From an uncultured delta proteobacterium (GTDB lineage: Bacteria; Desulfobacterota; Desulfobacteria; Desulfobacterales; JAHEIW01), in NCBI GenBank assembly GCA_963706575.1, contig CAVPNL010000015.1, positions 256,001-320,000 of the forward strand: DNA of 64,000 nucleotides, read 5' to 3'. Below the pieces are notes generated by a model that worked only from the letters and a program-made list of their open reading frames with translations, did not search any database and had not been told where the DNA came from. Position numbers and translations under genes: made by a program. This document shows positions 10,029-32,646 of the stretch, one piece after another (the stretch's first letter is position 1; the number at the start of each line of letters is the position of its first letter).

Positions 10029-11423
10029 ATGTTTGAAAACTTAGATCCTACCCTGTTGGCCCGTATTCAGTTTACTTTCACCATCGCATATCATATTCTT
10101 TTCCCGGCCTTTACCATCGGGCTGGCCAGCTGGCTGGCGGTGCTCGAGTGGCGCTGGCTCAGAACCGGCAATCCGATCTATGCCGACATCTATCGCATGT
10201 GGGTCAAAATCTTTGCGGTTACCTTCGGCATGGGGGTGGTTACCGGTGTGGTCATGCCGTTTCAGTTTGGCACCAACTGGTCGAGGTTTGTGGACGCCGG
10301 CGGCAATGTCATCGGGCCGTTGCTGGGCTATGAAGTTTTGACGGCCTTCTTTTTGGAGGCCTCATTTCTGGGGGTGATGCTGTTCGGCTGGAACCGCGTC
10401 AGCCCAAAAATGCACTTTGCTTCAACGGTCATCGTTGCGGCGGGGACATTGATTTCGGCTTTCTGGATTCTATCAGCCAACAGCTGGATGCAGACGCCGC
10501 AGGGATTCCGTGTCGGGGCTGATGGTCTGCTGTATCCCACCAGCTGGCTGGAGATAATTTTTACGCCCTCGTTCCCCTTTCGATTTGTGCACATGATCAC
10601 GGCTGCCTATCTGACGACCGCCTTTACCGTGGCCGGCATCGGTGCGTATTATCTGTGGCGCCAGCGCCATGTGCAGCATGCGCGCGTAATGCTCGGAATG
10701 GCCATGATCATGGCCATCTTCATTGCACCCCTGCAGGGGCTGTTCGGCGACCTCCACGGGCTCAACACGCTTAAACACCAGCCTGCCAAGGTGGCCGCCA
10801 TGGAAGGCCTCTGGGAAACCCGGCAGGGCGCGCCCCTGGTGCTTTTCGGCTGGCCGGATCAGGAAGCCGAGACCACCAAATACGCGATTGAAATTCCCAA
10901 AATGTCGAGCCTGATCCTCACCCACGACCTCGACGGCGAGGTCAAAGGGCTCAAGGAGTGGCCGCGGGAGGACCGCCCGCCGGCGGCTTTGGTATTCTGG
11001 GCTTTCCGCATTATGGTGGGGATCGGCATGCTGATGATGGCAACCGGCCTGATCGCGGTTATACTCTATTTTAAAAAACAGTTGTTTGAGACCCGCTGGT
11101 TCCAATACTGGTGCATGGCTCTGACGCCGGCCGGGTTTATTGCTGTGCTGGCCGGCTGGTTTGTAACCGAAGTCGGCCGCCAGCCCTGGATCGTCCAGGG
11201 ACTGATGCGCACCAGGGATGCCACTTCCCCGGTTATGGGGACATCCATTGCCATATCTCTGACGGCCTTTATTATCGTTTACGTTTTCGTATTCGGCGCC
11301 GGCAGTTATTACATCCTCAGCCTGATCGGCAAAGGCCCCGAGGATGCGGATGCGGCCTATGGCGACCATGGCGTCGAAAAGCCGCCGATCGTCACGGAAT
11401 TACCCAGGATAAAGGAAGAATAA
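10029..11423 (+). CDS. cydA: Cytochrome bd ubiquinol oxidase subunit I (short Q-loop, CIO-like)
   Basis: ARIQF..HILFP, FQFGTNW, FFLEA, NSWMQTP, QPAKVAAMEG and GWFVTEVGRQPW. Confidence 0.95.
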   Translation: MFENLDPTLLARIQFTFTIAYHILFPAFTIGLASWLAVLEWRWLRTGNPIYADIYRMWVKIFAVTFGMGVVTGVVMPFQFGTNWSRFVDAGGNVIGPLLGYEVLTAFFLEASFLGVMLFGWNRVSPKMHFASTVIVAAGTLISAFWILSANSWMQTPQGFRVGADGLLYPTSWLEIIFTPSFPFRFVHMITAAYLTTAFTVAGIGAYYLWRQRHVQHARVMLGMAMIMAIFIAPLQGLFGDLHGLNTLKHQPAKVAAMEGLWETRQGAPLVLFGWPDQEAETTKYAIEIPKMSSLILTHDLDGEVKGLKEWPREDRPPAALVFWAFRIMVGIGMLMMATGLIAVILYFKKQLFETRWFQYWCMALTPAGFIAVLAGWFVTEVGRQPWIVQGLMRTRDATSPVMGTSIAISLTAFIIVYVFVFGAGSYYILSLIGKGPEDADAAYGDHGVEKPPIVTELPRIKEE

Positions 11424-11424
11424 C

Positions 11425-12444
11425 ATGTTTAGTTTTGAAAGCTTAGTGGATCTGCCGCTGATATGGTTCGGGCTTATCGCCACCGCCATTTTCTTCTATA
11501 TTCTACTGGACGGTTTTGACCTCGGGGTGGGTATTCTTTTTCCGTTCGCACCGACCGACCGCTGCCGCGACCGCATGATGAATTCCATCGCCCCCTTCTG
11601 GGACGGTAACGAAACCTGGTTGATTTTAGGCGGCGGCGGCATGTTAGCCGCGTTCCCACTGGCATTTGTGGTTCTGATGCCGGCACTTTATATCCCGATA
11701 ATCATCATGTTGCTGGGGCTTATCTTCCGGGGGGTGGCATTTGAGTTTCGCTTTAAAGCCACCGGTAAATCCCGCCGCATCTGGGATTACGCTTTTCATT
11801 TTGGATCGCTGGTGGCGGCTTTAATGCAGGGCGTGATTATCGGCGCCATCGTGCAGGGGATCAAAGTCGAAGGCCGCAGCTATGCAGGCGGGGCTTTCGA
11901 CTGGCTGGACGCCTACAGTATCATGACCGGTGTGGCGGTTGTGTTTGGTTACGCTTTGCTGGGCGGCACCTGGCTGGTGGTGAAAACCGATGGTGAAACC
12001 CAGGCCTGGGCCCGCAAGAGCGCTATCTATGCGATCGGTTTTGTGGCTGTATTTTTGGCGGTCGTCAGCATCAGCATGCCGATTATGAATCCTGCAATTC
12101 GAAAGCTGTGGTTCAGCATGCCCAACTTCTTTTTGCTGCTGCCCATCCCGGCTGCCAGTTTGATCATGCTGCTCACTATTTGGCGCGATCTGCACACAGA
12201 TCGAGAACTTCGCCCGTTTTTACTGAGCTTCGGTGTTTTTTTGACCGGCTATCTCGGTATTGCCATCAGCACCTGGCCGTATATCGTGCCCTTCGAGATT
12301 ACCTTCCGCCAGGCGGCGGCTGCGCCCGAGTCGCAGTCGCTGTTATTGATCGGCACGGTCATCATGCTGCCGCTGATTCTGGCTTACGTCGGTTTCTGCT
12401 ACTACCTGTTCCGGGGAAAAGCATCCCATGAAAGCCTTTACTGA
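11425..12444 (+). CDS. cydB: Cytochrome bd ubiquinol oxidase subunit II
   Basis: LDGFDLGVG, PFWDGNETW, AAFP and RGVAFEFR; directly follows cydA. Confidence 0.95.
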   Translation: MFSFESLVDLPLIWFGLIATAIFFYILLDGFDLGVGILFPFAPTDRCRDRMMNSIAPFWDGNETWLILGGGGMLAAFPLAFVVLMPALYIPIIIMLLGLIFRGVAFEFRFKATGKSRRIWDYAFHFGSLVAALMQGVIIGAIVQGIKVEGRSYAGGAFDWLDAYSIMTGVAVVFGYALLGGTWLVVKTDGETQAWARKSAIYAIGFVAVFLAVVSISMPIMNPAIRKLWFSMPNFFLLLPIPAASLIMLLTIWRDLHTDRELRPFLLSFGVFLTGYLGIAISTWPYIVPFEITFRQAAAAPESQSLLLIGTVIMLPLILAYVGFCYYLFRGKASHESLY

Positions 12445-16634: not shown

Positions 16635-18164
16635 ATGATCAATCGACGTCAATTTCTATATCTGGCCGGGGCAGGTGCCGTAAACTTATTGAATATGAAC
16701 GGATTGCCATTCTCTAAAGTTGGAATGGCATCTTCAGAGAAAAGTGATTTCTTTCCCGACTTAGAACTATCTCTGACGGCCAGACCATCTGAAGTGCAAA
16801 TTTTCCCGGGTCAACCCACGACTGTTTGGCAATACAAGGGTCAGGTGATCAAAGGGGATCCCACCAGCCTGATGAATCTGGATCAATCCTTTTTAGGCCC
16901 CATCATCCGCACCCGCAAGAACCAGAAAGTTCGAATTCATTTTAACAATGACCTGCCGGACCGAAGTATTATCCACTGGCATGGCCTGCATGTCCCCGCA
17001 AAGATGGATGGTCATCCCATGTATGTCATCCCCACCGGAGATACGTTTACCTATGAGTTTGAAGTCCTAAACCGCGCCGGCACCTATTGGTATCACCCCC
17101 ACCCGCACGGCCGTACCGGCCATCAGGTCTACGGCGGCCTGGCGGGGTTATTTTTGGTTTCCGATGATGAGGAAGACAAACTAAACTTACCCGATGAAAA
17201 GCTGGACATTCCCCTGGTTATCCAGGACCGTTCATTTAATTCCAGCAACCAGTTGATATACCTGCCGCGGGGGATGCGCGACAGCATGACGGGCATGCTG
17301 GGCGACTCCATCTGTGTCAACGGCAAACCCGACTTCAAGCTTTCAGTCAGTACCCGAGCTTATCGCTTGCGCATCTTAAATGGCTCCAACTCGCGCATCT
17401 ATAAACTCGCCTGGAGTGACGGCACGCCGTTGACCGTCATTGCCACCGACGGCGGTTTGCTGGAAAAACCGGTTCAGAAAAAATATGTGGTCCTGGGTCC
17501 GGCCGAGCGGATCGAGCTGTGGGCGGATTTCAGCAAATACCCGCTGGGAACCTCTCTGGAACTGGTCAGCAAATATTTTGAAGCGGCCCTGCAGGCAAGG
17601 GCTATGGGGCCGCGCCGCGGAATGACGGGCGGCGACAAGTTGCCGAACGGCGCGCCTTTTAGCATTTTGAAAATCGATGTGGCCGGCAAAGATAAAGAAA
17701 CCCGCTTACTTCCGAACCAGCTGTCTGCAATCGAACGCTATCAGCCGCGGGATGCGGATAATTCCGATAACCCGCGGCGGTTTTCCTTTTTCATGAGACA
17801 TATGAATGGCCTGATTAACGGCCGCACGTTTCGCATGCAGGAAGTCGCCGCTGATGAACGCATCCGGCTCAATTCGACGGAACTGTGGGAGCTTGCCAAC
17901 GATGATCGTTCCATGGGAATGATGACGATGCCCATGCCCCATCCCGTTCACCTGCACGGCAAACAGTTTCAGGTGGTTGAACGCAGTGGGGCGCTGCACA
18001 GCGGCTACGTGGACGAGGGCTGGAAAGACACGGTTTTGCTGATGCCCGGTGAACGCGCAAAGATTGTCACCCGTTTTACGGATTACCCGGGGATGTTCTT
18101 ATATCATTGCCACAATCTGGAGCATGAAGACATGGGGATGATGCGCAACTATCTGGTCACTTAA
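16635..18164 (+). CDS. Tat-exported three-domain multicopper oxidase (CueO-like)
   Basis: NRRQFL Tat motif; HWHG, WYHPH, HPVHLHG and [13 protein letters not shown] give the complete Cu ligand set. Confidence 0.92.
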
Positions 18165-18183
18165 ATCTAAAGGAGATCTCTTT

Positions 18184-18543
18184 ATGTTTTCCGTAACAGT
18201 ATTACGTTACAGCATTTCAGCATTTATATTTTTTATTCTCGGTCTTTATCCATTTTCTTCAGTTTTTGCACAACAGGGAAGATACGACGGCCCGGGCATG
18301 ATGGGTGGCTGGGGAATGGGGTGGTTCGGCGGCATCTTTATGGTCGTCTTCTGGATTCTGATTCTGGTGGGTATTGTGTTTGGCATCAGATGGCTGTTTC
18401 AAGCTACCAGTAAAAAAGAAGATAGCAAGCAACATGGATCCCAGGCGATTGATATTCTTAAAGAGCGCTACGCCCGGGGAGAAATTGACAAGGCTCAATT
18501 TGAGGCCATGAAAAGCGATTTGGCTGACAAATCCAACCGATAA
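18184..18543 (+). CDS. SHOCT-domain membrane protein with Gly/Met-rich segment
   Basis: [12 protein letters not shown], a TM helix and [20 protein letters not shown]. Confidence 0.85.
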
Positions 18544-18631
18544 GAATTTTCAAGGCCCGATCAAATTCTGACTTCTGCCATTAGCCATTCCGGGTTAATC
18601 TCTTTAGAGCTCTTTCTTGTTATTGGTTTTA

Positions 18632-18654
18632 AGGTGCGAATAATTTTCGCACCT
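18632..18654. promoter_or_regulatory. Perfect 9-5-9 palindrome: enhancer-binding-protein site or terminator
   Basis: AGGTGCGAA-TAATT-TTCGCACCT, ~150 bp upstream of a sigma54 site. A related TTTGCGA-AA-TCGCAAA lies at 18713-18728. Confidence 0.5.
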
Positions 18655-18803
18655 ATTGTTTTTTTTATTGCACCGGCTGCTGGAATTAAATCTGTTTAAA
18701 TATTAACAAATCTTTGCGAAATCGCAAAATTATATATGATTCAATATGGTTACGCTTTGACATGCTTTAATTAACCTGTTTTGCAGGTTGGTTTTACAAT
18801 AGA

Positions 18804-18819
18804 TGGCATGTCATTTGCT
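18804..18819 (+). promoter_or_regulatory. sigma54 -24/-12 promoter
   Basis: TGGCATGTCATTTGCT. Confidence 0.75.
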
Positions 18820-18895
18820 CAACGAAAGATCAGTTGGGAACGTGGCGTATGAATTGTATTGATTAACGCTGTGACGATTAAAGGAAGGAACGGTT

Positions 18896-19255
18896 ATGCT
18901 TTTTAAAAAAGAAGGAAACCTAAATTACTGTATCGTAATCGTTTTTTTGTTCATTGTTTTTTTTATTTCAGTTTCACTGGCCTTCAGCCATGGGGGCAAA
19001 CATAAACCGGGAGAGTTTTCGAACCTGCAAGCATTGAAAAAGGCAACTGAGCTATATGATCAACTTATCGGAAAAGGAAAATTGGATCAAAGTTGGGAAA
19101 ATAAACTTTCCCAGGTTGATGTATTCAAACGGGAAAAGGACGATAAAAGTGAAATTGTGGTGTCCTTTCAGCGTGAAAGTGGAGAACCGAAAACTGTCTA
19201 CATCTTCCTTAACGCCGACGGTAAGTATTCCGGGTCCAATTTTACCGGAGACTAG
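18896..19255 (+). CDS. Small exported protein with N-terminal His (DUF6488-like)
   Basis: Signal peptide ending AFS-HGGKH; GKLDQSW and VYIFLNADGKYSGSNFTG. Confidence 0.65.
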   Translation: MLFKKEGNLNYCIVIVFLFIVFFISVSLAFSHGGKHKPGEFSNLQALKKATELYDQLIGKGKLDQSWENKLSQVDVFKREKDDKSEIVVSFQRESGEPKTVYIFLNADGKYSGSNFTGD

Positions 19256-19360
19256 ATCGATAGCGAATTTAGAGGGGTTGAAGAAAACTTTTCGCGGAAG
19301 ATGCTGTTTGTTAAAAAGCTTTCTGCCAACTCTATGCGCTTTTTATTGATCAGGAGATTC

Positions 19361-19990
19361 ATGATGAGTCGAAATAATATTCCAGCTAGAAATCAAAAAT
19401 GGCCCACGCTGGCCCAGTTGCCCGTACCGGCAAAAGCATTGGTGAGCGTGGTCATATTAACGATGGCCTTTGCCATGGCCGGTGCGTTAGGTCAAATCAT
19501 CATTCATGACATCATTCCCACATTCTTTTCGGGTCAACCATCCGGTCATCTCGATAATGCTGAAAAGTCTGACCCATACGCATCGAATGAGAGTGATCCG
19601 GCCTCATCCAGCAGGGGTGATCTTTTCTCCGAAGAATCTTTCCAGGCTGAAACTCCCAAGAAACAGACCTGGTACCAAACGGAACAATTCGTCTGGACCC
19701 TAAAATGGACCCATATTCACCTTTTCGGGATAAACATGATTTTTATATTTATGGGAGTCATAACCATTTTTTTAAATATCAGCATCAGGGCACGAACCTG
19801 GCTGGTTATACTTCCGTTTATCGGGGTTTTGGTAGACATTGCAGCCATGTGGCTGAAAGGTCATATTTCGCCGGCATTCTTTTGGCTCCATATTCCCGGC
19901 GGGGGGCTTTTTGGAATTACATTTGCGATTGTCTCGGCTCGGGCATTTTGGGAGATGTCCGGAGTGCGAAAAAACTACGCACAGTATTAA
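19361..19990 (+). CDS. Hypothetical four-TM membrane protein
   Basis: AGGAG SD before ATG at 19361; TM1, a periplasmic loop, THIHLFG and three more TMs. Confidence 0.7.
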   Translation: MMSRNNIPARNQKWPTLAQLPVPAKALVSVVILTMAFAMAGALGQIIIHDIIPTFFSGQPSGHLDNAEKSDPYASNESDPASSSRGDLFSEESFQAETPKKQTWYQTEQFVWTLKWTHIHLFGINMIFIFMGVITIFLNISIRARTWLVILPFIGVLVDIAAMWLKGHISPAFFWLHIPGGGLFGITFAIVSARAFWEMSGVRKNYAQY

Positions 19991-20069
19991 ACGAATATTT
20001 CAAAAGTGTAAAAAAATAAACTGCCCATAATTGTTGGTTTTGTAATCTGATAAAATGAGGTTTTCACCG

Positions 20070-20429
20070 ATGAAGAATCTAAATTACAGCGCAGCCAGAC
20101 TTTTTTTAATACTATTAATGGCATTTTCCATAATCGGTTGTGCGAGTGAACCGATAAAAGTCGATTTGCCGGCAAACCATCCCGCTAATCCACAAGCTCA
20201 AGAAGCTGAATTTACCCCACCGCCAAATCCTTTCAGGGAAGATGTTACGGCCATGAAAGGGAAATCAACGCCAGATTCTATGATGAAGCATAAACCGTAT
20301 GAAGAAAGCGGCAAGCAGCATATGGACCATAATATGGGAACAAAAAAAGGGAGTGAACTCGATTCGGACTCGACAAAAAAATCCGGTCAAGGGGAAGGCG
20401 ATAACCAGCATAAGGGGCATAGCCAATGA
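20070..20429 (+). CDS. His/Met-rich lipoprotein
   Basis: Lipobox IIGC, LPANHPANPQA and an M/H-rich tail; ATGA overlap with the TolC gene. Confidence 0.7.
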   Translation: MKNLNYSAARLFLILLMAFSIIGCASEPIKVDLPANHPANPQAQEAEFTPPPNPFREDVTAMKGKSTPDSMMKHKPYEESGKQHMDHNMGTKKGSELDSDSTKKSGQGEGDNQHKGHSQ

Positions 20430-21847
20430 AATATAAACGAAGACGTATAGGACTACTTTTTTGTTTCGTGTTTTTTGCAGCAGGATGTGCTCAGGTCCCC
20501 AAAGAAGCGGGCTTTAATGATGTGAAAGGTCTCGTGGGGCAGCGAGTTGATTACAATCTCCACTGGAATCAGGAAACTGAAGCCGACCTGGAAGTTGAAA
20601 AAGCCATCGAAGATCTGCTTAAGAATGAGCTAACACCGGAGACAACCGTTCAAATTGCTTTGCTTAACAACCCGAACTTGCAGGCAGTCTATGAAGATCT
20701 TGGAATTACCCAGGCGGATGTCGTCGAGGCGGGGCTGCTCGAAAATCCGGTGCTGTTCGGCCAGGCGCGCTTCCCGAACAGATCTGAAGAATCGACCAAT
20801 TATGAATTCGGAATTACGCAAAATTTTTTAAATATCCTGATGCTGCCGGCCCGCAAGAAGCTTTCCGCCATCCACTTTGAGCAGGTGAAACTGCGAGTTG
20901 CCGACGAAGTGATTCAATTGGTCGCCGATGTTAGGAAGTCCTATTTCTTTGTACTCGGTGCCAGACAGATCAGGGACTTGAGAAATGAAATCGCCCTTGC
21001 TGCCGGAAGCTCCTTTGAACTGGCACAGCGTTTACATTCTGCCGGCAATATTGGTGATCTTGATTTGGCCAAAGAAAATGCACATTTTGAGCAGTCCAGG
21101 CTGGATTTGGCAAACAGCGAAGCTGCGCTGCTCGACGCACGTGAGCAGCTGACGCGTTTGATGGGCTTCTGGGGACCTCAAACGAATTGGCGCCTTCCCG
21201 AGCAACTGCCGGATATTCCAACCGATGAAATCCCGCTGGAACACCTGGAGTCGCTTGCCATAGAAAACCGACTCGATCTGGCTGCTGAAAGAAAAGCGGT
21301 AGAAGCCCTGGCGCAGGCCCTGGGTATAACCATCGACTGGCGCTGGGTTGGGCAGATAGAAGTCGGGATCAGCAGAGAACGTGAAACGGACCGAACCTGG
21401 GTCACCGGGCCTTCACTGGCAATCGAGCTTCCGATATTTAACCAGCGCCAGGCGGACATCGCCCGGCTGGAGGCGCAGCTTCGCCGCAGCCAGAAAAGGT
21501 TGACGGCTCAGGCAATAGAGATTCGTTCAGAGGTGCGCTCTTTTAGAAATCGTCTGATCATGCAGCGCAATTTAATTGATCATTACCGTCGCACCGTATT
21601 GCCACTCAGAGAACAAATTGTCGATCTGACGCTTAAAAATTATAACTATATGCTTATCGGCGCTTTTGATTTGCTGATGGCCAAACAGCAGGAGTTTGAA
21701 GCCTATCAAAAGTATCTCGAAACCCTTAGAGATTACTGGATTGTCCGTGCTGACATGCAAAGATCTTTGGGCGGACGGCTACCAAGCCACATGCAGGGCA
21801 GACACAATATTCGAACGGGCCCGGCCGCCGAAAATAAAATAAACTAA
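20426..21847 (+). CDS. TolC-family outer membrane lipoprotein (copper-tolerance type)
   Basis: Lipobox AAGC, ALLNNPNLQA, AGLLENP and ELPIFNQ; precedes a copper oxidase. Confidence 0.85.
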   Translation: MKYKRRRIGLLFCFVFFAAGCAQVPKEAGFNDVKGLVGQRVDYNLHWNQETEADLEVEKAIEDLLKNELTPETTVQIALLNNPNLQAVYEDLGITQADVVEAGLLENPVLFGQARFPNRSEESTNYEFGITQNFLNILMLPARKKLSAIHFEQVKLRVADEVIQLVADVRKSYFFVLGARQIRDLRNEIALAAGSSFELAQRLHSAGNIGDLDLAKENAHFEQSRLDLANSEAALLDAREQLTRLMGFWGPQTNWRLPEQLPDIPTDEIPLEHLESLAIENRLDLAAERKAVEALAQALGITIDWRWVGQIEVGISRERETDRTWVTGPSLAIELPIFNQRQADIARLEAQLRRSQKRLTAQAIEIRSEVRSFRNRLIMQRNLIDHYRRTVLPLREQIVDLTLKNYNYMLIGAFDLLMAKQQEFEAYQKYLETLRDYWIVRADMQRSLGGRLPSHMQGRHNIRTGPAAENKIN

Positions 21848-21886
21848 ATGAAAAAGAAACCTTTTTCGATAAAGGAGCAAGTACAT

Positions 21887-23170
21887 ATGCTGACAAGACG
21901 TCAAATCCTCATTTCTGCTATGGCCTCACTTGCCGGAGGCACCTTGCTAAAAAAAGCCGATGCGACTTCCGCCAAAAATCAGGCGCACACGCATACAAAC
22001 CCATCTTCTAAACATCAAAGCAGAACCCATTACACGCCGGTGGTAACACCAAATGGCCTTACGCTGCCGTACAAAATGAAAAACGGTGTTAAAGAATTCC
22101 ATTTGATTGCGGAACCGGTTGAACGCGAGTTTGGGCCCGACATGAAAGTCAAATGTTGGGGGTATAATGGCCAGACGCCCGGCCCGGCGATCGAGGCAGT
22201 CGAGGGGGACCGGGTTCGCATATTCGTCACCAATAAGCTGCCTGAGCATACCAGTATTCACTGGCATGGCATTTTTTTGCCAAATGGGATGGATGGTGTC
22301 GGCGGCCTGACCCAACCCCATATCAAACCCGGTGAAACCTATGTTTATGAATTCACCTTGCGGCAGCACGGAACATTTATGTATCATCCGCACGCAGATG
22401 AAATGGTTCAATTGGCAGTGGGGATGATGGGATTTTTTATCATCCATCCCAAAGCGGTAGAGAGCCCGAAAATTGATCGAGATTTCGCTATCATGCTACA
22501 CGAGTGGGCCATCCATCCTGGCACCTATCGTCCGGATCCGGCTGTGATGCTGGATTTCAACATCTTTACGTTCAACAGCAAGGTGTTTCCCGCCATCGAT
22601 CATCTGGTGGTAAAAACCGGTGATCGGGTGCGCATCCGGATTGCCAATCTCAGCATGGACGAACACCCGATTCATATCCACGGGCATTCATATCGCGTCA
22701 CCGCAACGGACGGTGGCAAGATACCAAGGGCTGGACAGTGGCCGGAGACGACCGTACTGGTTCCGGTTGGCTCAACCCGTGATGTTGAATTCATCGCGGA
22801 TGCGCCGGGAGACTGGGCCTTTCACTGTCACAAATCCCATCACACCATGAACCCGATGGGGCATGCCATCCCCAACACACTCGGCGCTAATCAGAATGGG
22901 CTGGAAGAGAAAATTCGGAAAATGATTCCAGGCTATATGGCCATGGGCGAGACCGGAATGGCCGAGCATGCCGAACATGTGAAGCACATGCCCGGCCCCA
23001 AAAATACGTTGCCCATGATGATGGGCAAGGGCCCGTTTGGCAATATTGAAATGGGCGGGATGTTCACAGTGGTTAAAGTTCGGGACCACCTACGATCCTA
23101 TGATAAAGATCCGGGCTGGTATGAACACCCTGAAGGGACAGTGGCTTATCGCCTGGACAATGCTTTATAG
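21887..23170 (+). CDS. Tat-exported copper oxidase (CopA-like multicopper oxidase)
   Basis: AAGGAG SD, TRRQIL Tat motif, HWHG, MYHPH, HPIHIHG, HCHKSHH and a Met-rich C-terminus. Confidence 0.9.
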   Translation: MLTRRQILISAMASLAGGTLLKKADATSAKNQAHTHTNPSSKHQSRTHYTPVVTPNGLTLPYKMKNGVKEFHLIAEPVEREFGPDMKVKCWGYNGQTPGPAIEAVEGDRVRIFVTNKLPEHTSIHWHGIFLPNGMDGVGGLTQPHIKPGETYVYEFTLRQHGTFMYHPHADEMVQLAVGMMGFFIIHPKAVESPKIDRDFAIMLHEWAIHPGTYRPDPAVMLDFNIFTFNSKVFPAIDHLVVKTGDRVRIRIANLSMDEHPIHIHGHSYRVTATDGGKIPRAGQWPETTVLVPVGSTRDVEFIADAPGDWAFHCHKSHHTMNPMGHAIPNTLGANQNGLEEKIRKMIPGYMAMGETGMAEHAEHVKHMPGPKNTLPMMMGKGPFGNIEMGGMFTVVKVRDHLRSYDKDPGWYEHPEGTVAYRLDNAL

Positions 23171-25409: not shown

Positions 25410-25769
25410 ATGACAAAACGAACCAAACCAATTTTTACCGCGTCACTGATTTTGGCCATTGCGCTGCTGATTAATTTTGTGGGTCTGGACATCGCAAATG
25501 CTTGCGGATGGGGCCAGGGTGGGGGCCAGAGCTATGTGCCCCAGAGACGGGATCAAAATGGATATTTATCACAAAAACAGACACTTACGCAAGAGCAAGC
25601 CAAGGATATTGTCGCGAATTATGTCAAAAGACTGAATCCCAATCTTACGGTTGGAAATGTTAAAGATAATGGAAGCTTCTACGAAGCTGAAATAATTGCT
25701 GAGGATAATGAGGTCATCCAGCTTGTGGGTATCGATAAACAATCCGGACGCCTTATCATTCTGAATTAA
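25410..25769 (+). CDS. Exported PepSY-like domain protein
   Basis: AAGGAGG SD, signal peptide, and LTQEQAKDIV...YEAEI...IDKQSGRLI. Confidence 0.7.
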   Translation: MTKRTKPIFTASLILAIALLINFVGLDIANACGWGQGGGQSYVPQRRDQNGYLSQKQTLTQEQAKDIVANYVKRLNPNLTVGNVKDNGSFYEAEIIAEDNEVIQLVGIDKQSGRLIILN

Positions 25770-25949
25770 AATTCGACAGATCCTTGATCAACCCTGTTTC
25801 GAGAATACCAATGAGCAAAAAGAGCTTATTTTCAGAAAATTAGCTCATGCGGTTTTTTCTGTATTGACGTTTATCAGGGTTTCAAGGAATGCTGCCGACA
25901 GAAAGCGAATTCGCTGAAATTGCAAATAAATTCATTTCAGGAGCCATTT

Positions 25950-26423
25950 ATGCACAGGCGCAATAGAATACTGGACCTTTGTTTTCTTGTTTTGATAATT
26001 GTAATTTTAGCCGGGGTGCCTTTCGGCATCGCCTATTACGATCGGCAGGTTTCATCCCAAAAAATCCCCTCGCAAGCCCGGGTATTTGCGCTTACCGGGC
26101 ACGCCGAAAGAGGCTGGCTGACGGGTCAGGTTTCGGCTTATGATGCCGTCACTTTCTGGCAAAAGCAGGGTCTGCCGATAGAAAGACCGGAAATTGAGGT
26201 TAAAAAAGGCGATATGGTGGTTTTTAAACTGGCGAGCAGTGACGTCGTTCACGGCTTCAGTTTAAAAGACTTCGGCATTTATCTGACGGACGGCATCCAG
26301 CCGGGGAAGGTTATTTACGTTTCGTTCAAGGCCGACAGGTCGGGAACCTTTACTTTTTCCTGCAATGCAATCTGCGGTGATATGCATCAGAACATGCAGG
26401 GGACACTGGTCGTCAGGGCTTGA
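25950..26423 (+). CDS. Membrane-anchored CuA cupredoxin (cytochrome oxidase subunit II/NosZ C-terminal-like domain)
   Basis: One TM; SDVVHGF...CNAICGDMHQNM is a complete CuA ligand set. AGGAG SD before ATG 25950. Confidence 0.85.
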   Translation: MHRRNRILDLCFLVLIIVILAGVPFGIAYYDRQVSSQKIPSQARVFALTGHAERGWLTGQVSAYDAVTFWQKQGLPIERPEIEVKKGDMVVFKLASSDVVHGFSLKDFGIYLTDGIQPGKVIYVSFKADRSGTFTFSCNAICGDMHQNMQGTLVVRA

Positions 26424-26544: not shown

Positions 26545-28242
26545 ATGCAAAAGATTACCAAAAATGTTGTGCTGTTGGGTCTAATTTTGTTGGTGGTCAT
26601 GCTGGCAGCGGGATATTACGCGATGACCGGAGCCGCGAACGCGGCGGGTGAGAATCTACCTTCCGTCACGATTCGGGGCCGTGTGACTTCAGTTTATGGC
26701 CCGGTAGAAAATGCCAGAGTCAGAATAATCGGTGAAGAACGCTTCACGCTTACCGACCGCCAGGGGCGCTATGAGCTTCAAACCACGCATTCACCGGGCG
26801 AACGCGTCATCGTAGTCGCCGGCAAGGAAGGCTGGTTTAACTATGGGCAAATTGCCAATTTTTCGGGCCGCACGCGGGATATCTTTTTAAACCCGGTTTA
26901 TCTCGCTGATCGCGCCGATTATCGGTTTATCTCTCCGGTGACCTGCGCCGGATGTCATGTAAAACTGACCCGTTACTACGACCAATCCAAAATGGCCCAC
27001 ACCACCTCCAATCCCAAGCTGCTGAACATGTATTACGGAACCGATGCCTTTAATCGACCGGGTGTCGGGCCGGGATACAGGCTGGACAATCCCAAAAGCG
27101 AAGGCAATTGTACGACCTGTCACGCACCATCGGCTGCCGGCGCTATCCCGGCGTCTCAGGATTTAACAAACGTACTGCGCTCTCCCTGGGTAGAATGGGA
27201 CGGCATTAGCTGTGACTATTGTCACAAGGTCAGAAAAGTCATCAAGGACAAGTCCAAACCCAGCCAGACGACCGCCGTTCATGAAAGGCAAACGCCGGTT
27301 CAGGGCAACTCCATTCTTGTCTTTGGACCTTACGATGATGTGATTGCACCGCCAATGTCGGCATCGTATAACCCGGTCTTCGATCAGGGGCAGTTTTGTT
27401 CCCTGTGCCACAGCCAGTCTGAGAAGCTGGAAAGCGGCAATACCTGGGACAGCAGTAAGATTTATTCAGCTGCCGAATGGAAAGCATTTGGCCTGAAAGA
27501 CAAAACGCTCATTCCCATCCAGACGACTTATCAGGAATGGAGGCAGTGGCAGGATCAACTTCCGGCCGGCGACGCCAATAAAGGCAAGAAATGCCAGGAC
27601 TGCCACATGAGCTGGCGCAAAGAGATGCTGCCTTACGATAATTATGTCGTCGACGGCAATGCGCGCAACATGTGGGGCAACTTCAGGTCACCTAAAAACA
27701 TTCGGCCGCATCATTTTGACGGGGGTACTGAAACCCAGCTGAAAACCGCGCTGGCTCTGGAGCTGGAAGGAGTGGTTTCCGACAACAAACTGACGATTAC
27801 AACTTTCATCACCAATACCAACGGCGGTCACTGGGTGCCTACCGGAGAGACCATGCGCAGTGTGATGCTGCTGCTCAAGGCCACCGACTCCAGCGGAAAA
27901 CCCCTTAAAATGATAAAAGGCAGCACACTTCCGGATTGGACCGGAAAGGGGAATGTTAAGACTGGCAATTATGCCGGGCTGTCCGGGGCAGTCTTTGCAC
28001 GGGTACTGGGTGATGACGAAGGCAATCTGAATGTACCCTTCTGGAAAGCCACCCGGATTGTCTCAGATACGCGCATCCGACCGAAAAAGACCGTAACGTT
28101 TAAATTCGAATTTCTTGTCGAAGACCCGGATGACGAACCCACGGCCGAAGCCAGTCTCATCTACCGTCCGGCTTTCAAATCGCTGGCAAAGATGAAAAGC
28201 TGGGATGTCGAGGACATCTTAATTACCAGCAGTGTCTGGTAG
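26545..28242 (+). CDS. Pentaheme c-type cytochrome with N-terminal carboxypeptidase-regulatory-like beta-sandwich
   Basis: Five CxxCH motifs (CAGCH, CTTCH, CDYCH, CSLCH, CQDCH), HHFDG, GHWVPTG and a signal peptide. Confidence 0.85.
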   Translation: MQKITKNVVLLGLILLVVMLAAGYYAMTGAANAAGENLPSVTIRGRVTSVYGPVENARVRIIGEERFTLTDRQGRYELQTTHSPGERVIVVAGKEGWFNYGQIANFSGRTRDIFLNPVYLADRADYRFISPVTCAGCHVKLTRYYDQSKMAHTTSNPKLLNMYYGTDAFNRPGVGPGYRLDNPKSEGNCTTCHAPSAAGAIPASQDLTNVLRSPWVEWDGISCDYCHKVRKVIKDKSKPSQTTAVHERQTPVQGNSILVFGPYDDVIAPPMSASYNPVFDQGQFCSLCHSQSEKLESGNTWDSSKIYSAAEWKAFGLKDKTLIPIQTTYQEWRQWQDQLPAGDANKGKKCQDCHMSWRKEMLPYDNYVVDGNARNMWGNFRSPKNIRPHHFDGGTETQLKTALALELEGVVSDNKLTITTFITNTNGGHWVPTGETMRSVMLLLKATDSSGKPLKMIKGSTLPDWTGKGNVKTGNYAGLSGAVFARVLGDDEGNLNVPFWKATRIVSDTRIRPKKTVTFKFEFLVEDPDDEPTAEASLIYRPAFKSLAKMKSWDVEDILITSSVW

Positions 28243-28260: not shown

Positions 28261-28926
28261 TTGAGGAAATTTTATACGATTATATTTTCAATTGTTATTT
28301 TGACTTTTTTGTACTCCCCGGGGCTGGCGTTTGCCGGAAATATCAAAGGGACGGTAAAGGTAAAAGGACTGCGTACGCCTGAAAATATCCTGGTATATCT
28401 GACCAAGGCCCCCCCGAGTGCTGCAGATCTTTCAAAAGTAAAATTCGTTATGGATCAGCGCAACCTGGAATTCGTGCCGCATGTATTGCCGATTCTGGTC
28501 GGTGCCACGGTTGATTTTCCGAATAATGACAAGGTGGATCATAATGTTTTTTCGATGTCGCGCACCAAAAAATTTAACCTGGGAAGTTACCCGGCCGGAG
28601 AGAGCAAATCCATTGTATTCGATAAACCCGGCATTGTGGAGCTGCGCTGTGACGTGCATGCCGAAATGGCCGCCTTTATTCTCGTGATGAAAAACCCTTA
28701 TTTTGCCGTAACCGATAAACAGGGTCATTTTGAAATCCCGAACTCAAACACCCTCGAACAAACCGGTTTGTCCGAGGTAAAGGATTTTGCTGCGGGAAAA
28801 TATTTCGTCAAATCCTGGCATGAGAAATTAAAGACCCAAAAACAGGCGGTCATCGTACCTGAAAATGGCGATGTTACGATTCAACTGGATCTTACCCGGG
28901 GGACGCCCGGTGTCCTATATAAATGA
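28261..28926 (+). CDS. Exported type-1 copper cupredoxin (MauL-like) flanked by beta-sandwich segments
   Basis: GNIKGTV, DQRNLEFVPHV and FPNNDKVDHNVFS...CDVHAEM (H, C, H, M ligands), plus WHE. TTG start after AGGAGG. Confidence 0.8.
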   Translation: MRKFYTIIFSIVILTFLYSPGLAFAGNIKGTVKVKGLRTPENILVYLTKAPPSAADLSKVKFVMDQRNLEFVPHVLPILVGATVDFPNNDKVDHNVFSMSRTKKFNLGSYPAGESKSIVFDKPGIVELRCDVHAEMAAFILVMKNPYFAVTDKQGHFEIPNSNTLEQTGLSEVKDFAAGKYFVKSWHEKLKTQKQAVIVPENGDVTIQLDLTRGTPGVLYK

Positions 28927-28945: not shown

Positions 28946-29018
28946 GTCATTCCCGCGAAGGCGGGAATCCAGCCTTGTCAGCAAAACATTTCTGGATTCC
29001 CGCCTTCGCGGGAATGAC
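28946..29018. repeat. dRS3-like REP pair (GTCATTCCCGCGAAGGCGGGAATCCAG)
   Basis: Two ATTCCC-N8-GGGAAT units in perfect inverted arrangement. Confidence 0.9.
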
Positions 29019-29135: not shown

Positions 29136-29873
29136 TTGCCTGATGTTTCAATCTATATGGCGTTTGCCGCCGGTTTGATCTCATTTTTATCTCCATGTGT
29201 CTTGCCCCTGGTGCCGGGATATATTTCCTATATATCCGGCGTCTCCTTTGCAGAGATCGGGGAAAAAGAAGGAAGCACGCCGTTTCTGAGCAAAGAAAAA
29301 CGAATCATTATTTACAGCTCGATCTTCTTTATCATCGGATTTTCCGCGGTTTTTATTTTGCTGGGCGCAACTGCCACCTGGATCGGGGCGTTTATTTCGT
29401 CAAAAACATCCATCCTGACAAAACTGGCGGGACTGCTAATTATTTTTTTCGGTATTTACATGATGGGTCTTATCCGGCCCCGCTTTTTATATAGAGAAGC
29501 CAGATTCCAAATTAAAGATAAACGTTTAGGGTATGTCGGGGCGTTGCTCATCGGGGCCGCCTTTGCTTTTGGCTGGACCCCCTGTATCGGTCCCATTTTG
29601 GCGGGTATTTTAACCTATGCCGGCACCCTGGAGAAGGTAAACCAGGGGGTTTTTCTTCTCTTAATATATTCCCTGGGGCTGGGGATTCCGTTTTTAGTGA
29701 CGGCTATCGGCATAAACCAGTTTTGGAGATTTTTTAATCGGATCAAGAAATACATGCGGCTTCTGGAAGTCACCAGCGGTGCTATCATGGTCATTTTAGG
29801 TTTCATGATTTTTACCAATAAGCTTGTATTAATTCCAGCTTATCTGCCGTTTTTAAATAAGTTTGCATGGTAG
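29136..29873 (+). CDS. ccdA: Cytochrome c biogenesis protein CcdA
   Basis: SFLSPCVLPLVP and GWTPCIGPIL; multi-TM. Confidence 0.93.
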   Translation: MPDVSIYMAFAAGLISFLSPCVLPLVPGYISYISGVSFAEIGEKEGSTPFLSKEKRIIIYSSIFFIIGFSAVFILLGATATWIGAFISSKTSILTKLAGLLIIFFGIYMMGLIRPRFLYREARFQIKDKRLGYVGALLIGAAFAFGWTPCIGPILAGILTYAGTLEKVNQGVFLLLIYSLGLGIPFLVTAIGINQFWRFFNRIKKYMRLLEVTSGAIMVILGFMIFTNKLVLIPAYLPFLNKFAW

Positions 29874-29904: not shown

Positions 29905-30522
29905 ATGATGAAAAAAAAATCAACCTTTAAAGCATTTCTATTATTTCTGATCCTGCCCGTTTTGGGATTGGTTGCATTCAGTTTTTTGGAAATTGATCTT
30001 TTTGCAAAAACCGAAACCCAGGAACTGGACCGGCTATTTCGTGATATGGGCGTGCTTGGATTTCCCTTTCCTACCGATCCTGTTGAAATTACGCTAAAAG
30101 ACCTAAACGGGCAGCAGGTCAGCCTTTCCGATTTTCGGGGCAAAATTGTGTTTATTAATTTTTGGACGACCTGGTGTCTGGCCTGCGTTATTGAAATGCC
30201 GTCGATGGAGAAATTACATCAGAAGTTTAAAGATAAAGATTTTGTAATGGTAGCCATAAATTTACAGGAATCAGCCTCAAAGATAAAACAATTTTACAAG
30301 GAATATAAGCTGACGTTCACAACCCTTTTGGACTCGACCGGCGATGTCGGTGCCGGGTTGGCAATACGCTCCATACCCACAACCTTTATTCTCGATAAGA
30401 ACGGGAGAATACTCGGCAAAGCTTTAGGACCGCGAGAGTGGGAAGGTAGAAAATCAATCGCTTTGTTTGAGTACCTGACGGACAGCTATGTTGCCAGCTC
30501 AAACTCGAGATCAACAAACTGA
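29905..30522 (+). CDS. TlpA/ResA-like thiol-disulfide oxidoreductase
   Basis: N-terminal anchor, NFWTTWCLAC..EMP, IPTT and GPREW. Confidence 0.9.
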   Translation: MMKKKSTFKAFLLFLILPVLGLVAFSFLEIDLFAKTETQELDRLFRDMGVLGFPFPTDPVEITLKDLNGQQVSLSDFRGKIVFINFWTTWCLACVIEMPSMEKLHQKFKDKDFVMVAINLQESASKIKQFYKEYKLTFTTLLDSTGDVGAGLAIRSIPTTFILDKNGRILGKALGPREWEGRKSIALFEYLTDSYVASSNSRSTN

Positions 30523-30526
30523 TTTG

Positions 30527-30688
30527 AGTGTTGTGTCCCCGAAATATTGTCAAAAATATTTTTAAGTACTGAGGCATGCTATCCAACCGTCATTCCGGCG
30601 CAGGCGGGAATCCAGGCGTCTTTGATCTGGACTCCCGCCTGCGCGGGAGTGACAATCATTTTGTAACTTATTTGTAGGACGCAACACT
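30527..30688. mobile_element. Putative MITE shell enclosing a dRS3-like REP pair (30589-30653)
   Basis: Left end AGTGTTGTGTCCCCGAAATATTGTCAAAA versus right-end reverse complement AGTGTTGCGTCCTACAAATAAGTTACAAAA. Inside lies GTCATTCCGGCGCAGGCGGGAATCCAG...CTGGACTCCCGCCTGCGCGGGAGTGAC. Confidence 0.6.
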
Positions 30689-30720: not shown

Positions 30721-32646
30721 ATGGACAGAAAAAAAGCCTGGATTTTAATTATTTTGACTTTGGTCGTGGCAGTGGTCGTTCCGCTGTCTTTTCAATTATT
30801 CCCCAGCGAGATCCGCACCCACACCCTTTCACTGGAGGCCAAAAAGTACGGATATTCCCCATCAAGGATCATTGTAAATAAAGGCGATAAGATTGTTTTA
30901 AAACCCACCTCCCTTGATGCCACCCACGGTTTCCTGCTGGATGGACACCCGATTGAATTTATCATGAGAAAAGGCGCGGCCTTTCTCAAGTACACCTGGG
31001 AAGACGAGGGCGGCAAGCTTCAGGCAGACTGGGACAGGGTTTCTGAAGTCGAATTTGTGGCGGATAAAGCCGGCAAATTCACTTTTCGCTGCACCCAGAC
31101 CTGCGGAAACCTTCATCCTTTTATGACCGGCGAGTTGATTGTAAGGCCCAATACACCTTATTATCTTTTTATTTCCCTATCCATCTGGCTGGTGTTCAGC
31201 TTACTGGTCTATTTCCGAACGGATACCGGTTTTCGCTTTTCAGGCTTTCAACACATCAATCTTCTGGAAAAATTACCGTGGCTTAAAAAAATGGTAAAGC
31301 TACGCAGTTTTCAATTTCTGATTATTCTGCCCAATTTTGTCGTTTTTTATCTTTTCATTCTCAGCAGCCTTTGGGGCAGTCCGGTGGGTAACCGTAACAT
31401 TGCGATTATCTTTGTCTGGATTCTGTGGTGGTTTGTACTCAAGGCAATTATCGTTCCGCTGGGCGGCAGGATCTGGTGTATGGTATGCCCGTTGCCAGCA
31501 CCCGCCGAGTGGCTGAGTCGCAAAAGCTTCACAGCGGTTCGTTATATCGGGCAGCCTTTTAAAACGCTGCACCATCGGTTCCTCGGGTTGCAAAAGGACT
31601 GGCCCAAATTAATGGACAACATCTGGCTGCAAAATATCCTGTTTCTGGCGCTGATTTCTTTCGGTATTATTCTCATCACCCGACCGATAGCCACGGCATT
31701 GCTGTTTCTGATTATCCTGGTTGTGAGTTTGATGCTTGCGCTGATTTACCGGCGCCGGGTTTTTTGTCAGTACCTGTGTCCGGTGGGCGGATTTCTGGGC
31801 ACCTACTCCATGGCTTCGATGACCGAGCTCAGGGCTGTTGATTTTGATATGTGCAGAACACACAAAGAAAAGTCATGCTATGCCGGCGGGCCCGGCGGAT
31901 GGGCCTGTCCCTGGAAACAATATATCGGTACCATGAAGCGCAACAACTATTGCGGGTTATGCACGGAGTGCATTAAGAGCTGTCCCAAAGATAACGTTGG
32001 TATTTTTATCCGGCCTTTCGGCTCGGACCGTAAATTAAAAGGCTATGATGAAATGTTCAATGTGATCATCATGCTGGTGGTGGCCATCGTCTTTAGTGTG
32101 ACCATGTCGGGTCCCTGGAGCGTTATTAAAGATGCCGCCAACGTGACCGAAAGCAGACAAATTGTTCCCTTTCTAATTTATATTGCTTTAATCTGGATTT
32201 TAGCTCTTGGCGTGTTTCCTGGAATTTTTGCGCTTGTCGCCCGAGCAGCCAGGCGCGTTGCAGGGAGTCCGGCAAGCAACCGGACCGTTATTTTGCGGCT
32301 GGCGTACATGCTGATTCCCATCGGTATATTTGCCTGGATTGCATTCAGTTTGCCGATGCTGATGGTGAACTATGGTTATATCCTGAATGTACTGTCTGAT
32401 CCGCTGGGGTTGGGGTGGGATATTCTGGGGACTGCTGCTTTTCCTTTTCAACCTTTTTATCCCGAATCCATACCCGTCATCCAGGGGATCATACTGCTGT
32501 TCGGCCTATATTTCGGATTGAGCAGAGGATATTTAGGTTTAAAGGAGATTATAGCGGTTCCTGATGCAAGCGCCAAAGCGATGATTATTCCATCCATATT
32601 TGCGCTTTTAGTGATAAATATATTTTTAAAGCTTTATATGGGATAA
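30721..32646 (+). CDS. Fusion of a CuA cupredoxin domain and a NapH/NosR-like polyferredoxin membrane protein
   Basis: DATHGF...CTQTCGNLHPFM (CuA); WCMVCP and FCQYLCP; CRTHKEKSC..ACPW..CGLCTECIKSCP; many TM helices. Confidence 0.85.
   Translation: MDRKKAWILIILTLVVAVVVPLSFQLFPSEIRTHTLSLEAKKYGYSPSRIIVNKGDKIVLKPTSLDATHGFLLDGHPIEFIMRKGAAFLKYTWEDEGGKLQADWDRVSEVEFVADKAGKFTFRCTQTCGNLHPFMTGELIVRPNTPYYLFISLSIWLVFSLLVYFRTDTGFRFSGFQHINLLEKLPWLKKMVKLRSFQFLIILPNFVVFYLFILSSLWGSPVGNRNIAIIFVWILWWFVLKAIIVPLGGRIWCMVCPLPAPAEWLSRKSFTAVRYIGQPFKTLHHRFLGLQKDWPKLMDNIWLQNILFLALISFGIILITRPIATALLFLIILVVSLMLALIYRRRVFCQYLCPVGGFLGTYSMASMTELRAVDFDMCRTHKEKSCYAGGPGGWACPWKQYIGTMKRNNYCGLCTECIKSCPKDNVGIFIRPFGSDRKLKGYDEMFNVIIMLVVAIVFSVTMSGPWSVIKDAANVTESRQIVPFLIYIALIWILALGVFPGIFALVARAARRVAGSPASNRTVILRLAYMLIPIGIFAWIAFSLPMLMVNYGYILNVLSDPLGLGWDILGTAAFPFQPFYPESIPVIQGIILLFGLYFGLSRGYLGLKEIIAVPDASAKAMIIPSIFALLVINIFLKLYMG

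Follow-up and report, generated by a model that had tools for sequence, protein, structure and literature searches.

The fusion gene and its product

The 64,000 bp window analysed here, the whole stretch taken from contig CAVPNL010000015.1 of an uncultured delta proteobacterium, carries on its forward strand (30721..32646) a gene whose 641-residue product joins a CuA-type cupredoxin domain to a membrane iron-sulfur protein. An earlier reading of the letters alone (the sequence-only reading) had called it a CuA domain fused to a NapH/NosR-like polyferredoxin. The open reading frame at these coordinates is real. Its product is a conserved protein that belongs to a known superfamily in a form for which we found no description, and its output is probably a twin CuA. 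The AlphaFold2 model of the fusion, built on a 108-row alignment, has a mean predicted local distance difference test (pLDDT) value of 94.3 and a predicted template modelling score of 0.93. It concurs with hydropathy on 11 transmembrane helices, and both methods place a hydrophobic membrane anchor or export helix at residues 3-26 (30727..30798), where the sequence-only reading had seen the N-terminal anchor.

The cupredoxin domain (CuA-1; residues 31-143, 30811..31149) is predicted to lie outside and has the fold of oxidase subunit II and of NosZ. Its model matches 7deg_E with a Z of 13.8 (root-mean-square deviation 1.3 Å, 92 residues aligned) and 1ehk_B with a Z of 13.4 (1.5 Å, 93 residues). 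Alignment with the CuA of the T. thermophilus ba3 oxidase assigns six ligands, H69 (30925-30927) and C124, Q126, C128, H132 and M135 (31090-31125), so that the set H...C-x-(E/Q)-x-C-x3-H-x2-M is complete, as the sequence-only reading had proposed. Gln at the carbonyl position is also found in the T. thermophilus protein when solved structures are aligned. The canonical motif is H-X34-CXEXCX3HX2M (PMC6669012; this and the other papers cited are quoted from their accessible parts), while 54 residues separate H69 from C124 in the fusion, an insertion of about 20 residues. A search of 7999 scored candidates gave 1375 relatives at E<=0.001, and the motif is intact in 119 of the 120 close homologues listed from them. 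By ligands and fold CuA-1 is a putative mixed-valence dicopper centre resembling that of ba3. CuA centres are known mainly as electron entry sites of cytochrome oxidases and nitrous oxide reductase; ligands and fold are the same here, but the domain sits on an iron-sulfur membrane protein. The axial Met column is Glu in 10 of 75 distant rows, and a subclade (P0142, P0145, P0154, P0166, P0179, P0183, P0187) carries this natural CuA variant.

Fer4_5 is the only Pfam family above its cut-off, Cupredoxin_1 and COX2 remaining below theirs. The NCBIfam matches, NosZ, L-NosZ and CoxB models at the N-terminus and NapH models in the middle, are all far below cut-off. The best of them, clade III L-NosZ, was rejected as a link (39 versus 700 bits, CuA part only; no protein above cut-off in 5 genomes); a search for a NosZ propeller in the source genome was negative, its controls being equally silent. 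With the membrane domain alone (residues 170-641) Foldseek gave no match at E<=0.001, and the best VIA-align result (Z 9.0, 2.6 Å, 91 residues aligned) covers the last three helices only, a generic helical-bundle match that speaks neither for a known nor for a new fold.

The membrane domain holds two cysteine motifs and a ferredoxin domain. The sequence-only reading had announced two CxxxCP-type motifs; this is correct for C349 and C353 (through P354; 31765..31782), where Fer4_5 exceeds its cut-off, while the first motif is Cx2CP (C253-M-V-C256-P, 31477..31491) and is so in all 120 close homologues. Its two ferredoxin motifs are confirmed: motif 1, C378-x2-H381-x4-C386-x9-C396-P (31852..31911), is degenerate with His (31861-31863) at the second Cys position, and motif 2 is the canonical CxxCxxCxxxCP (C411/C414/C417/C421-P, residues 411-422, 31951..31986). 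The fusion is therefore not a polyferredoxin, since it encodes two clusters only. The multi-helix domain recognised from the sequence is also larger than had been noticed: five of the 11 helices follow the ferredoxin domain (32044..32640) and include a conserved DPxGxGW loop (residues 560-566). With the N-terminus placed inside, the inside loops contain 28 Lys and Arg residues versus 8 in the outside loops. In the predicted topology, as had been supposed, CuA-1 is outside while both cysteine motifs and the ferredoxin domain are inside. A topology scan found no His in any transmembrane helix of the fusion and haem b is therefore unlikely; the five C-terminal helices bear His in a sister clade (see below) and are His-free in the fusion.

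All 120 close homologues retain the His substitution. Across 75 distant rows the same column holds Cys (44) or His (29) in 73 cases, with one Pro and one Asp, and the two residues alternate across the tree. Because the position tolerates almost only these two metal ligands, His381 is probably a ligand of a 3Cys/His cluster. His-ligated distal clusters are electron exchange points in hydrogenases.

A cytoplasmic redox partner, missed in the sequence-only reading, is suggested by the long relatives (861-2455 residues), 21 of 25 of which have a GltD/NfnB-like FAD/NAD(P)H domain inserted into ferredoxin motif 1, directly past its first Cys, motif 2 beyond the insert being intact. The membrane His motif of the sister clade is found in none of the insert-bearing proteins, two of which are named Ca. 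Omnitrophota and Ca. Scalindua. These 21 proteins do not equal 21 insertion events, since many are close kin. The insertion argues that the ferredoxin domain is cytoplasmic and that, in the insert-bearing forms, the motif-1 cluster is tied to an NAD(P)H partner; by analogy, the same His-bearing cluster may be the docking point in the fusion.

The operon and its second CuA protein

The fusion is the last of seven forward-strand genes. The operon is headed by a small exported protein without Pfam family (25410..25769; in 25 of 66 close loci), followed by a separate membrane-anchored CuA protein (CuA-2; 25920..26423, likely start at 25953), a pentahaem cytochrome c with a C-terminal immunoglobulin (Ig)-like part (26545..28242), a type-1-copper-like cupredoxin (28261..28926; pattern H...C-x2-H-x2-M in 44 of 45 family members), a CcdA/DsbD-type membrane thiol reductase (29136..29873) and a TlpA/ResA-like membrane thioredoxin that scores below family cut-offs (29905..30522). 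TlpA reduces CuA cysteines (PMC6669012), and it is plausible that the operon thioredoxin is the reductant of the CuA cysteines and/or of apocytochrome. A Sco search returned this thioredoxin as its sole match.

The second CuA subunit was overlooked by the sequence-only reading. Its ligands H100, C137, C141, H145 and M148 are invariant in 45 rows, which were selected by the same motif. Of the 38 close loci with at least 5.2 kb of upstream sequence (24 of the window type, 13 with an octahaem, trihaem and cytochrome b set, one other), 36 have a separate CuA gene. A distant sample was taken as the best 80 of 342 metagenome loci, the membrane gene being called in 79. CuA-1 is fused to it in 20 of the 79; where the two are separate and the contig leaves room, CuA-1 is the immediately preceding gene in 46 of 47 loci, a count biased upward because the query included the CuA domain. 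A second CuA lies downstream in 39 of 56 loci with room and is often fused to cytochrome c.

Complex prediction supports binding of CuA-2 to the fusion, with a score of 0.71 versus 0.00 for the best control. This mark was reached by 116 of 157 solved pairs and by 2 of 215 mismatched ones, a calibration that is only roughly valid for the alignments used; the runs concur in at least 91% of contacts, and the partner pLDDT is at least 76. In the predicted complex the CuA-2 helix packs on fusion residues 195-226 and 562-573, touching the DPxGxGW loop. The predicted interface further includes fusion residues 67-68 and 126-129 and CuA-2 residues 95-99 and 139-142, which belong to the two ligand sets or adjoin them; from these residue lists we read the two CuA centres as lying side by side.

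The operon's two CuA proteins are the only matches in the source genome to the CuA pattern, which would miss NosZ-type spacing, and the L-NosZ model found no further CuA domain there. Neither an A/B-type oxidase subunit I nor NosZ was found in this 92% complete genome. An orphan oxidase subunit II was considered and rejected, as the two COX1 matches of the genome are, in our reading of their lengths and neighbours, of the cbb3 and qNOR (quinol-dependent nitric oxide reductase) types. All 8 carriers among 41 related genomes have a COX1 family member; this is uninformative, because 30 of the 41 have one anyway.

RNA libraries from four studies yielded contigs of relatives over most of the operon, in small shares with possible DNA carry-over and without a silent control; they carry no weight here. 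The numbers from promoter and terminator scans (18 versus 12.8 +/- 3.7 and 15 versus 10.7 +/- 3.6, respectively) were close to those from shuffled sequence. Two copies of a 27-nt inverted-repeat element separate operon genes (28946-29018 and 30589-30653); it is probably a genome-wide repeat resembling repetitive extragenic palindromes, since many unrelated contigs were recruited by it in read mapping.

Relatives of the membrane domain

Relatives were scored with a profile of the membrane domain (A2). Two FtrD proteins of annotated ftrABCD-type operons gave 72 and 83 bits (profile positions 141-478) and the source genome's own NapH/YccM-like protein 25 bits. The whole membrane domain is matched by a cyanobacterial protein with a cyclic-nucleotide-binding domain (251 bits, 24.6% over 455 residues, Cx2CP first), which we take to be FesM-like. 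These scores place the fusion on the FesM/FtrD side of the NapH/NosR superfamily, so that the NapH/NosR-like membrane module named by the sequence-only reading gives way to FesM-like proteins and FtrD as closest kin. The parallel with the NosR layout drawn there holds; the idea that copper had been swapped for flavin within NosR does not, as a membrane domain so much nearer FesM-like proteins and FtrD than the NapH/YccM-like one suggests that copper was added to a different branch.

The fusion is not a NapH, a NosR/RdhC, a CcoG, an FtrD or a FesM proper. With NapH, NosH and MauN it shares the helix core, two cysteine motifs and two inside clusters, but it is twice as long and its operon has no NapG partner; a NapG-type gene is also missing among the recurring neighbour families. 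It scores 30.4 versus a cut-off of 234 bits and 26 versus 213 bits with the NCBIfam NapH/MauN models (E 2e-7 and 6e-6) and departs from their motif set (two Cx3CP plus two [4Fe-4S]) by having Cx2CP first and a motif 1 with His and altered spacing. The layout of NosR and RdhC, namely a helix, an outside redox domain, a helix and a membrane iron-sulfur module (PMC5928378), is also that of the fusion, as is, by predicted topology, the redox domain outside and the cysteine motifs inside. Compared with NosR, NirI and RdhC (PceC), whose membrane module likewise has two cysteine motifs, the fusion has CuA in place of covalent flavin mononucleotide (FMN), Cx2CP, five extra helices and a second CuA subunit. 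The NosR-type FMN-binding domain with its covalent Thr motif gave no Pfam match at E<=0.05, the domain being a cupredoxin, and the window contains no nos, nir or rdh cluster.

FtrD of FtrABCD has a membrane iron-sulfur domain homologous to that of the fusion, and its operon also encodes FtrB, a cupredoxin that oxidises Fe(II) and binds Cu (PMC11966278, PMC7415376). This kinship invites a reading in which electrons flow inwards: an outside oxidase, cytochrome or cupredoxin, would oxidise a metal ion or another substrate, and the CuA pair would feed the electrons into the membrane protein, where quinone or the inside clusters would take them up. The role of CuA as the electron entry site of cytochrome oxidase and NosZ agrees with this direction. 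However, at the potentials usual for these centres, electrons would have to climb steeply from CuA to menaquinone or [4Fe-4S]. The first cysteine motif of FtrD is Cx3CP, and the protein has neither the DPxGxG loop nor a fused domain, FtrB lacks the CuA motif, and the locus has neither FtrA/P19 nor FTR1. The latter is encoded in 3 of 80 distant loci and falls outside the 45 commonest neighbour families of the close loci. We consider an FtrD-like sink improbable.

FesM of Synechococcus PCC 7002 is a membrane iron-sulfur protein in the cyclic flow of electrons around photosystem I, as cited in PMC9003380. The FesM-like relative shares the full membrane domain and Cx2CP with the fusion; it differs by a cyclic-nucleotide-binding N-terminus, missing in the fusion, and by the lack of CuA. 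Such domains in FesM-like relatives, the two-component systems that flank many loci, the first description of NosR and NirI as regulators and the activation of NosZ by NosR would all suit a redox sensor or maturation factor that signals the outside copper or redox state inwards, or keeps partner enzymes active, without sustained flux. This is very improbable in our view, as Pfam and NCBIfam scans found no DNA-binding or kinase domain in the fusion, and a flavoprotein wired into the cluster motif together with a chain of electron carriers suggests flux.

CcoG reduces Cu(II) and has two Cu sites besides its two [4Fe-4S] clusters (PMC7558416, PMC8456105). By comparison, the inside Cx2CP and Cx3CP motifs of the fusion could bind Cu(II) for reduction by the clusters, or outside Cu(II) could be reduced, for copper supply or detoxification, CuA then being a redox buffer or copper store and not a respiratory output. 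Many loci do lie in copper islands, sister-clade proteins are fused to YHS, HMBD, NosL and YtkA domains, and in 43 of 80 distant loci a gene for a PCYCGC protein comes before the cassette. But the fusion has no match to the CcoG/FixG family model at E<=0.05, is outside a ccoGHIS context and has a helical C-terminus in place of the C-terminal Ig domain. CcoG needs no CuA, and multihaem cytochromes and cytochrome b predominate in close loci, only 4 of 66 of which have a multicopper oxidase. Copper genes could also merely supply a copper-hungry module. On balance copper handling appears rather unlikely.

Among representatives at 50% identity, 2810 proteins matched at E<=0.001. Of the 150 top-scoring ones, which were inspected, 83 were dropped (fragments, insert-bearing forms or motif-pattern misses) and 67 kept. 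Fused CuA (26 proteins) and a membrane HxxH motif (25 proteins) never occur together in these 67. In a FastTree tree of 92 membrane domains, the CuA clade is split from the His (sister) clade at support 100 (Shimodaira-Hasegawa-like values only), fused and split forms being intermixed within the CuA clade. The sister-clade fusions listed above also extend to cytochrome domains. The family is patchy, found in 11 of 301 genomes of the phylum at E<=1e-30 (either clade) and in 8 of 41 close genomes, and record titles of relatives include Desulfobacterales, Planctomycetota, Verrucomicrobiales, Acidobacteria and two archaea. ESM Atlas returned only unnamed clusters with the same architecture, and the names that databases give to relatives are automatic. 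No paper describing the architecture was found in searches of open full texts, subscription journals and supplements (e.g., the architecture lists of PMC5928378) lying beyond that scope; the accessible parts of PMC13477213, PMC9003380, PMC8139620, bioRxiv 2025.09.05.674415 and PMC11828985 do not mention it.

Membrane proteins of the His and CuA types share one copper island, with DoxX and HMA proteins, in loci L142 and L147, the latter island also having a multicopper oxidase and FTR1. In L082 and L083, members of the His clade follow genes that we read as NapG/NapH-like, hinting that such modules have a partner that binds haem or copper.

Outside partners and direction of electron flow

What lies outside the membrane varies among loci. 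The pentahaem cytochrome, found in 33 of 66 close loci, is related to T. tepidum c552 (5ZE8; E 1e-7), a protein described as of unknown function (bioRxiv 2023.11.21.568154). It is not an MccSep/ExtKL: MccSep has a haem-ligating Cys and a catalytic Sec/Cys (bioRxiv 2025.11.18.688581), while the pentahaem protein has only 10 Cys, all in its five CxxCH motifs. An octahaem, a trihaem and a cytochrome b are encoded in 12-14 of 66 close loci, the octahaem matching PDB 6I5B (E 6e-21), which we take to be OcwA. Further outside partners are CuA-cytochrome c fusions, a haem-b EB_dh fusion (P0319) and a reductive dehalogenase. The last is encoded in L087 (303-4389; 264 bits versus a cut-off of 160) together with a gene presumed to be RdhB-like, directly upstream of the CuA fusion and with a second CuA downstream; only an RdhB-like gene stands directly upstream of the fusion in L088 (240-3014). 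Among the 80 distant loci, rdhA is directly upstream in one and an rdhB-like gene in two. We read the position of the L087 fusion as resembling that of rdhC.

A core that stays constant (the iron-sulfur protein, CuA-1 and CuA-2), outside partners that can be exchanged and an NAD(P)H module that is optional on the inside make us lean towards an outward electron conduit, with the fusion as membrane subunit of a two-subunit, haem-free module that ends in a tandem CuA and feeds varied partners. It has been proposed that NapH, NosR and RdhC pass electrons to outside enzymes and that NapH and RdhC take them from menaquinol (PMC5928378). Here the His-ligated cluster would be the exposed entry point at which ferredoxin or an NAD(P)H flavoprotein, as cytoplasmic partner, delivers electrons; these electrons and/or those of menaquinol that the membrane domain binds would reach the CuA pair. 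Menaquinol, a cytoplasmic carrier, or both through a bifurcating step, are possible donors. CuA-2 is predicted to dock by its helix on fusion helix 196-218 and the DPxGxGW loop; electrons could cross the bilayer without haem through a bound quinone, by a Q-type step with bifurcation or along conserved Trp residues. The CuA pair would then reduce the outside partner of each locus, in the window the type-1 cupredoxin and the pentahaem cytochrome, while CcdA and the TlpA-like protein would hold the CuA and haem-binding cysteines reduced.

Several points weigh against such a conduit. Its outward direction is deduced from general potentials, CuA having a potential of about +0.25 V and [4Fe-4S] clusters a low one. 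The His-free helices offer no obvious carrier across the membrane. The least-error contact pairs of the predicted complex are helix contacts, and the face-to-face copper geometry comes from residue lists only. A reductive dehalogenase would be badly served by CuA, which seems too oxidising for it, so that L087 does not sit well with a simple output role. Metal genes recur in the 80 distant loci (PCYCGC in 43, P1B ATPase in 7, HMA in 5, FTR1 in 3), and the window itself has a copper-resistance-like group upstream of the operon (16635-23170: two multicopper oxidases of 509 and 440 residues, an outer-membrane efflux protein and a His-rich lipoprotein). No measured activity of any family member was found in the searched literature, and CcoG, the closest relative whose enzyme activity has been measured, reduces Cu(II).

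A bolder form of the outward conduit, which we hold to be unlikely, is a haem-free and possibly quinone-independent transmembrane reductase running from NAD(P)H or ferredoxin over the His-ligated [4Fe-4S] to two face-to-face CuA centres, as a plug-in module that bacteria and archaea would place ahead of many different outside enzymes; the CuA pair would possibly be a four-copper wire or even a joint catalytic site.

How the inside clusters of NapH, NosR, RdhC, FtrD, CcoG and FesM serve outside partners is a long-standing question. With a coloured CuA reporter built in, visible by electron paramagnetic resonance, the donor, the direction and the role of the cysteine motifs become testable in one polypeptide. 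The CuA-fusion lineages are sediment Desulfobacterota and several other bacterial and archaeal lineages, and a copper-based electron route would join the haem and iron-sulfur chains usually assumed for anaerobes.

Some loci have other neighbours. In L080 (2009-5178, reverse strand) a His-rich beta-propeller of the YVTN/lactonase type is upstream of the CuA fusion, which is followed by a separate CuA; the trio resembles a split propeller-plus-CuA enzyme and scores far below the L-NosZ cut-off. A third operon type (L067-L071 and L073) encodes NosL proteins and a MacB-like ABC transporter together with a porin-like protein that bears a single CxxCH, a type-1 cupredoxin and, in part of these loci, a PF10080 protein. 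At G323:C1:2164160-2168300 the fusion is about 1.5 kb from an opposite-strand gene for a 758-residue COX1-family (qNOR-like) protein. Cytochrome bd oxidase genes are present in the window at 10029-12444; with these and the alternative complex III-like and cbb3-like genes at C15:201224-212016 of the source genome, the host looks oxygen-tolerant to us.

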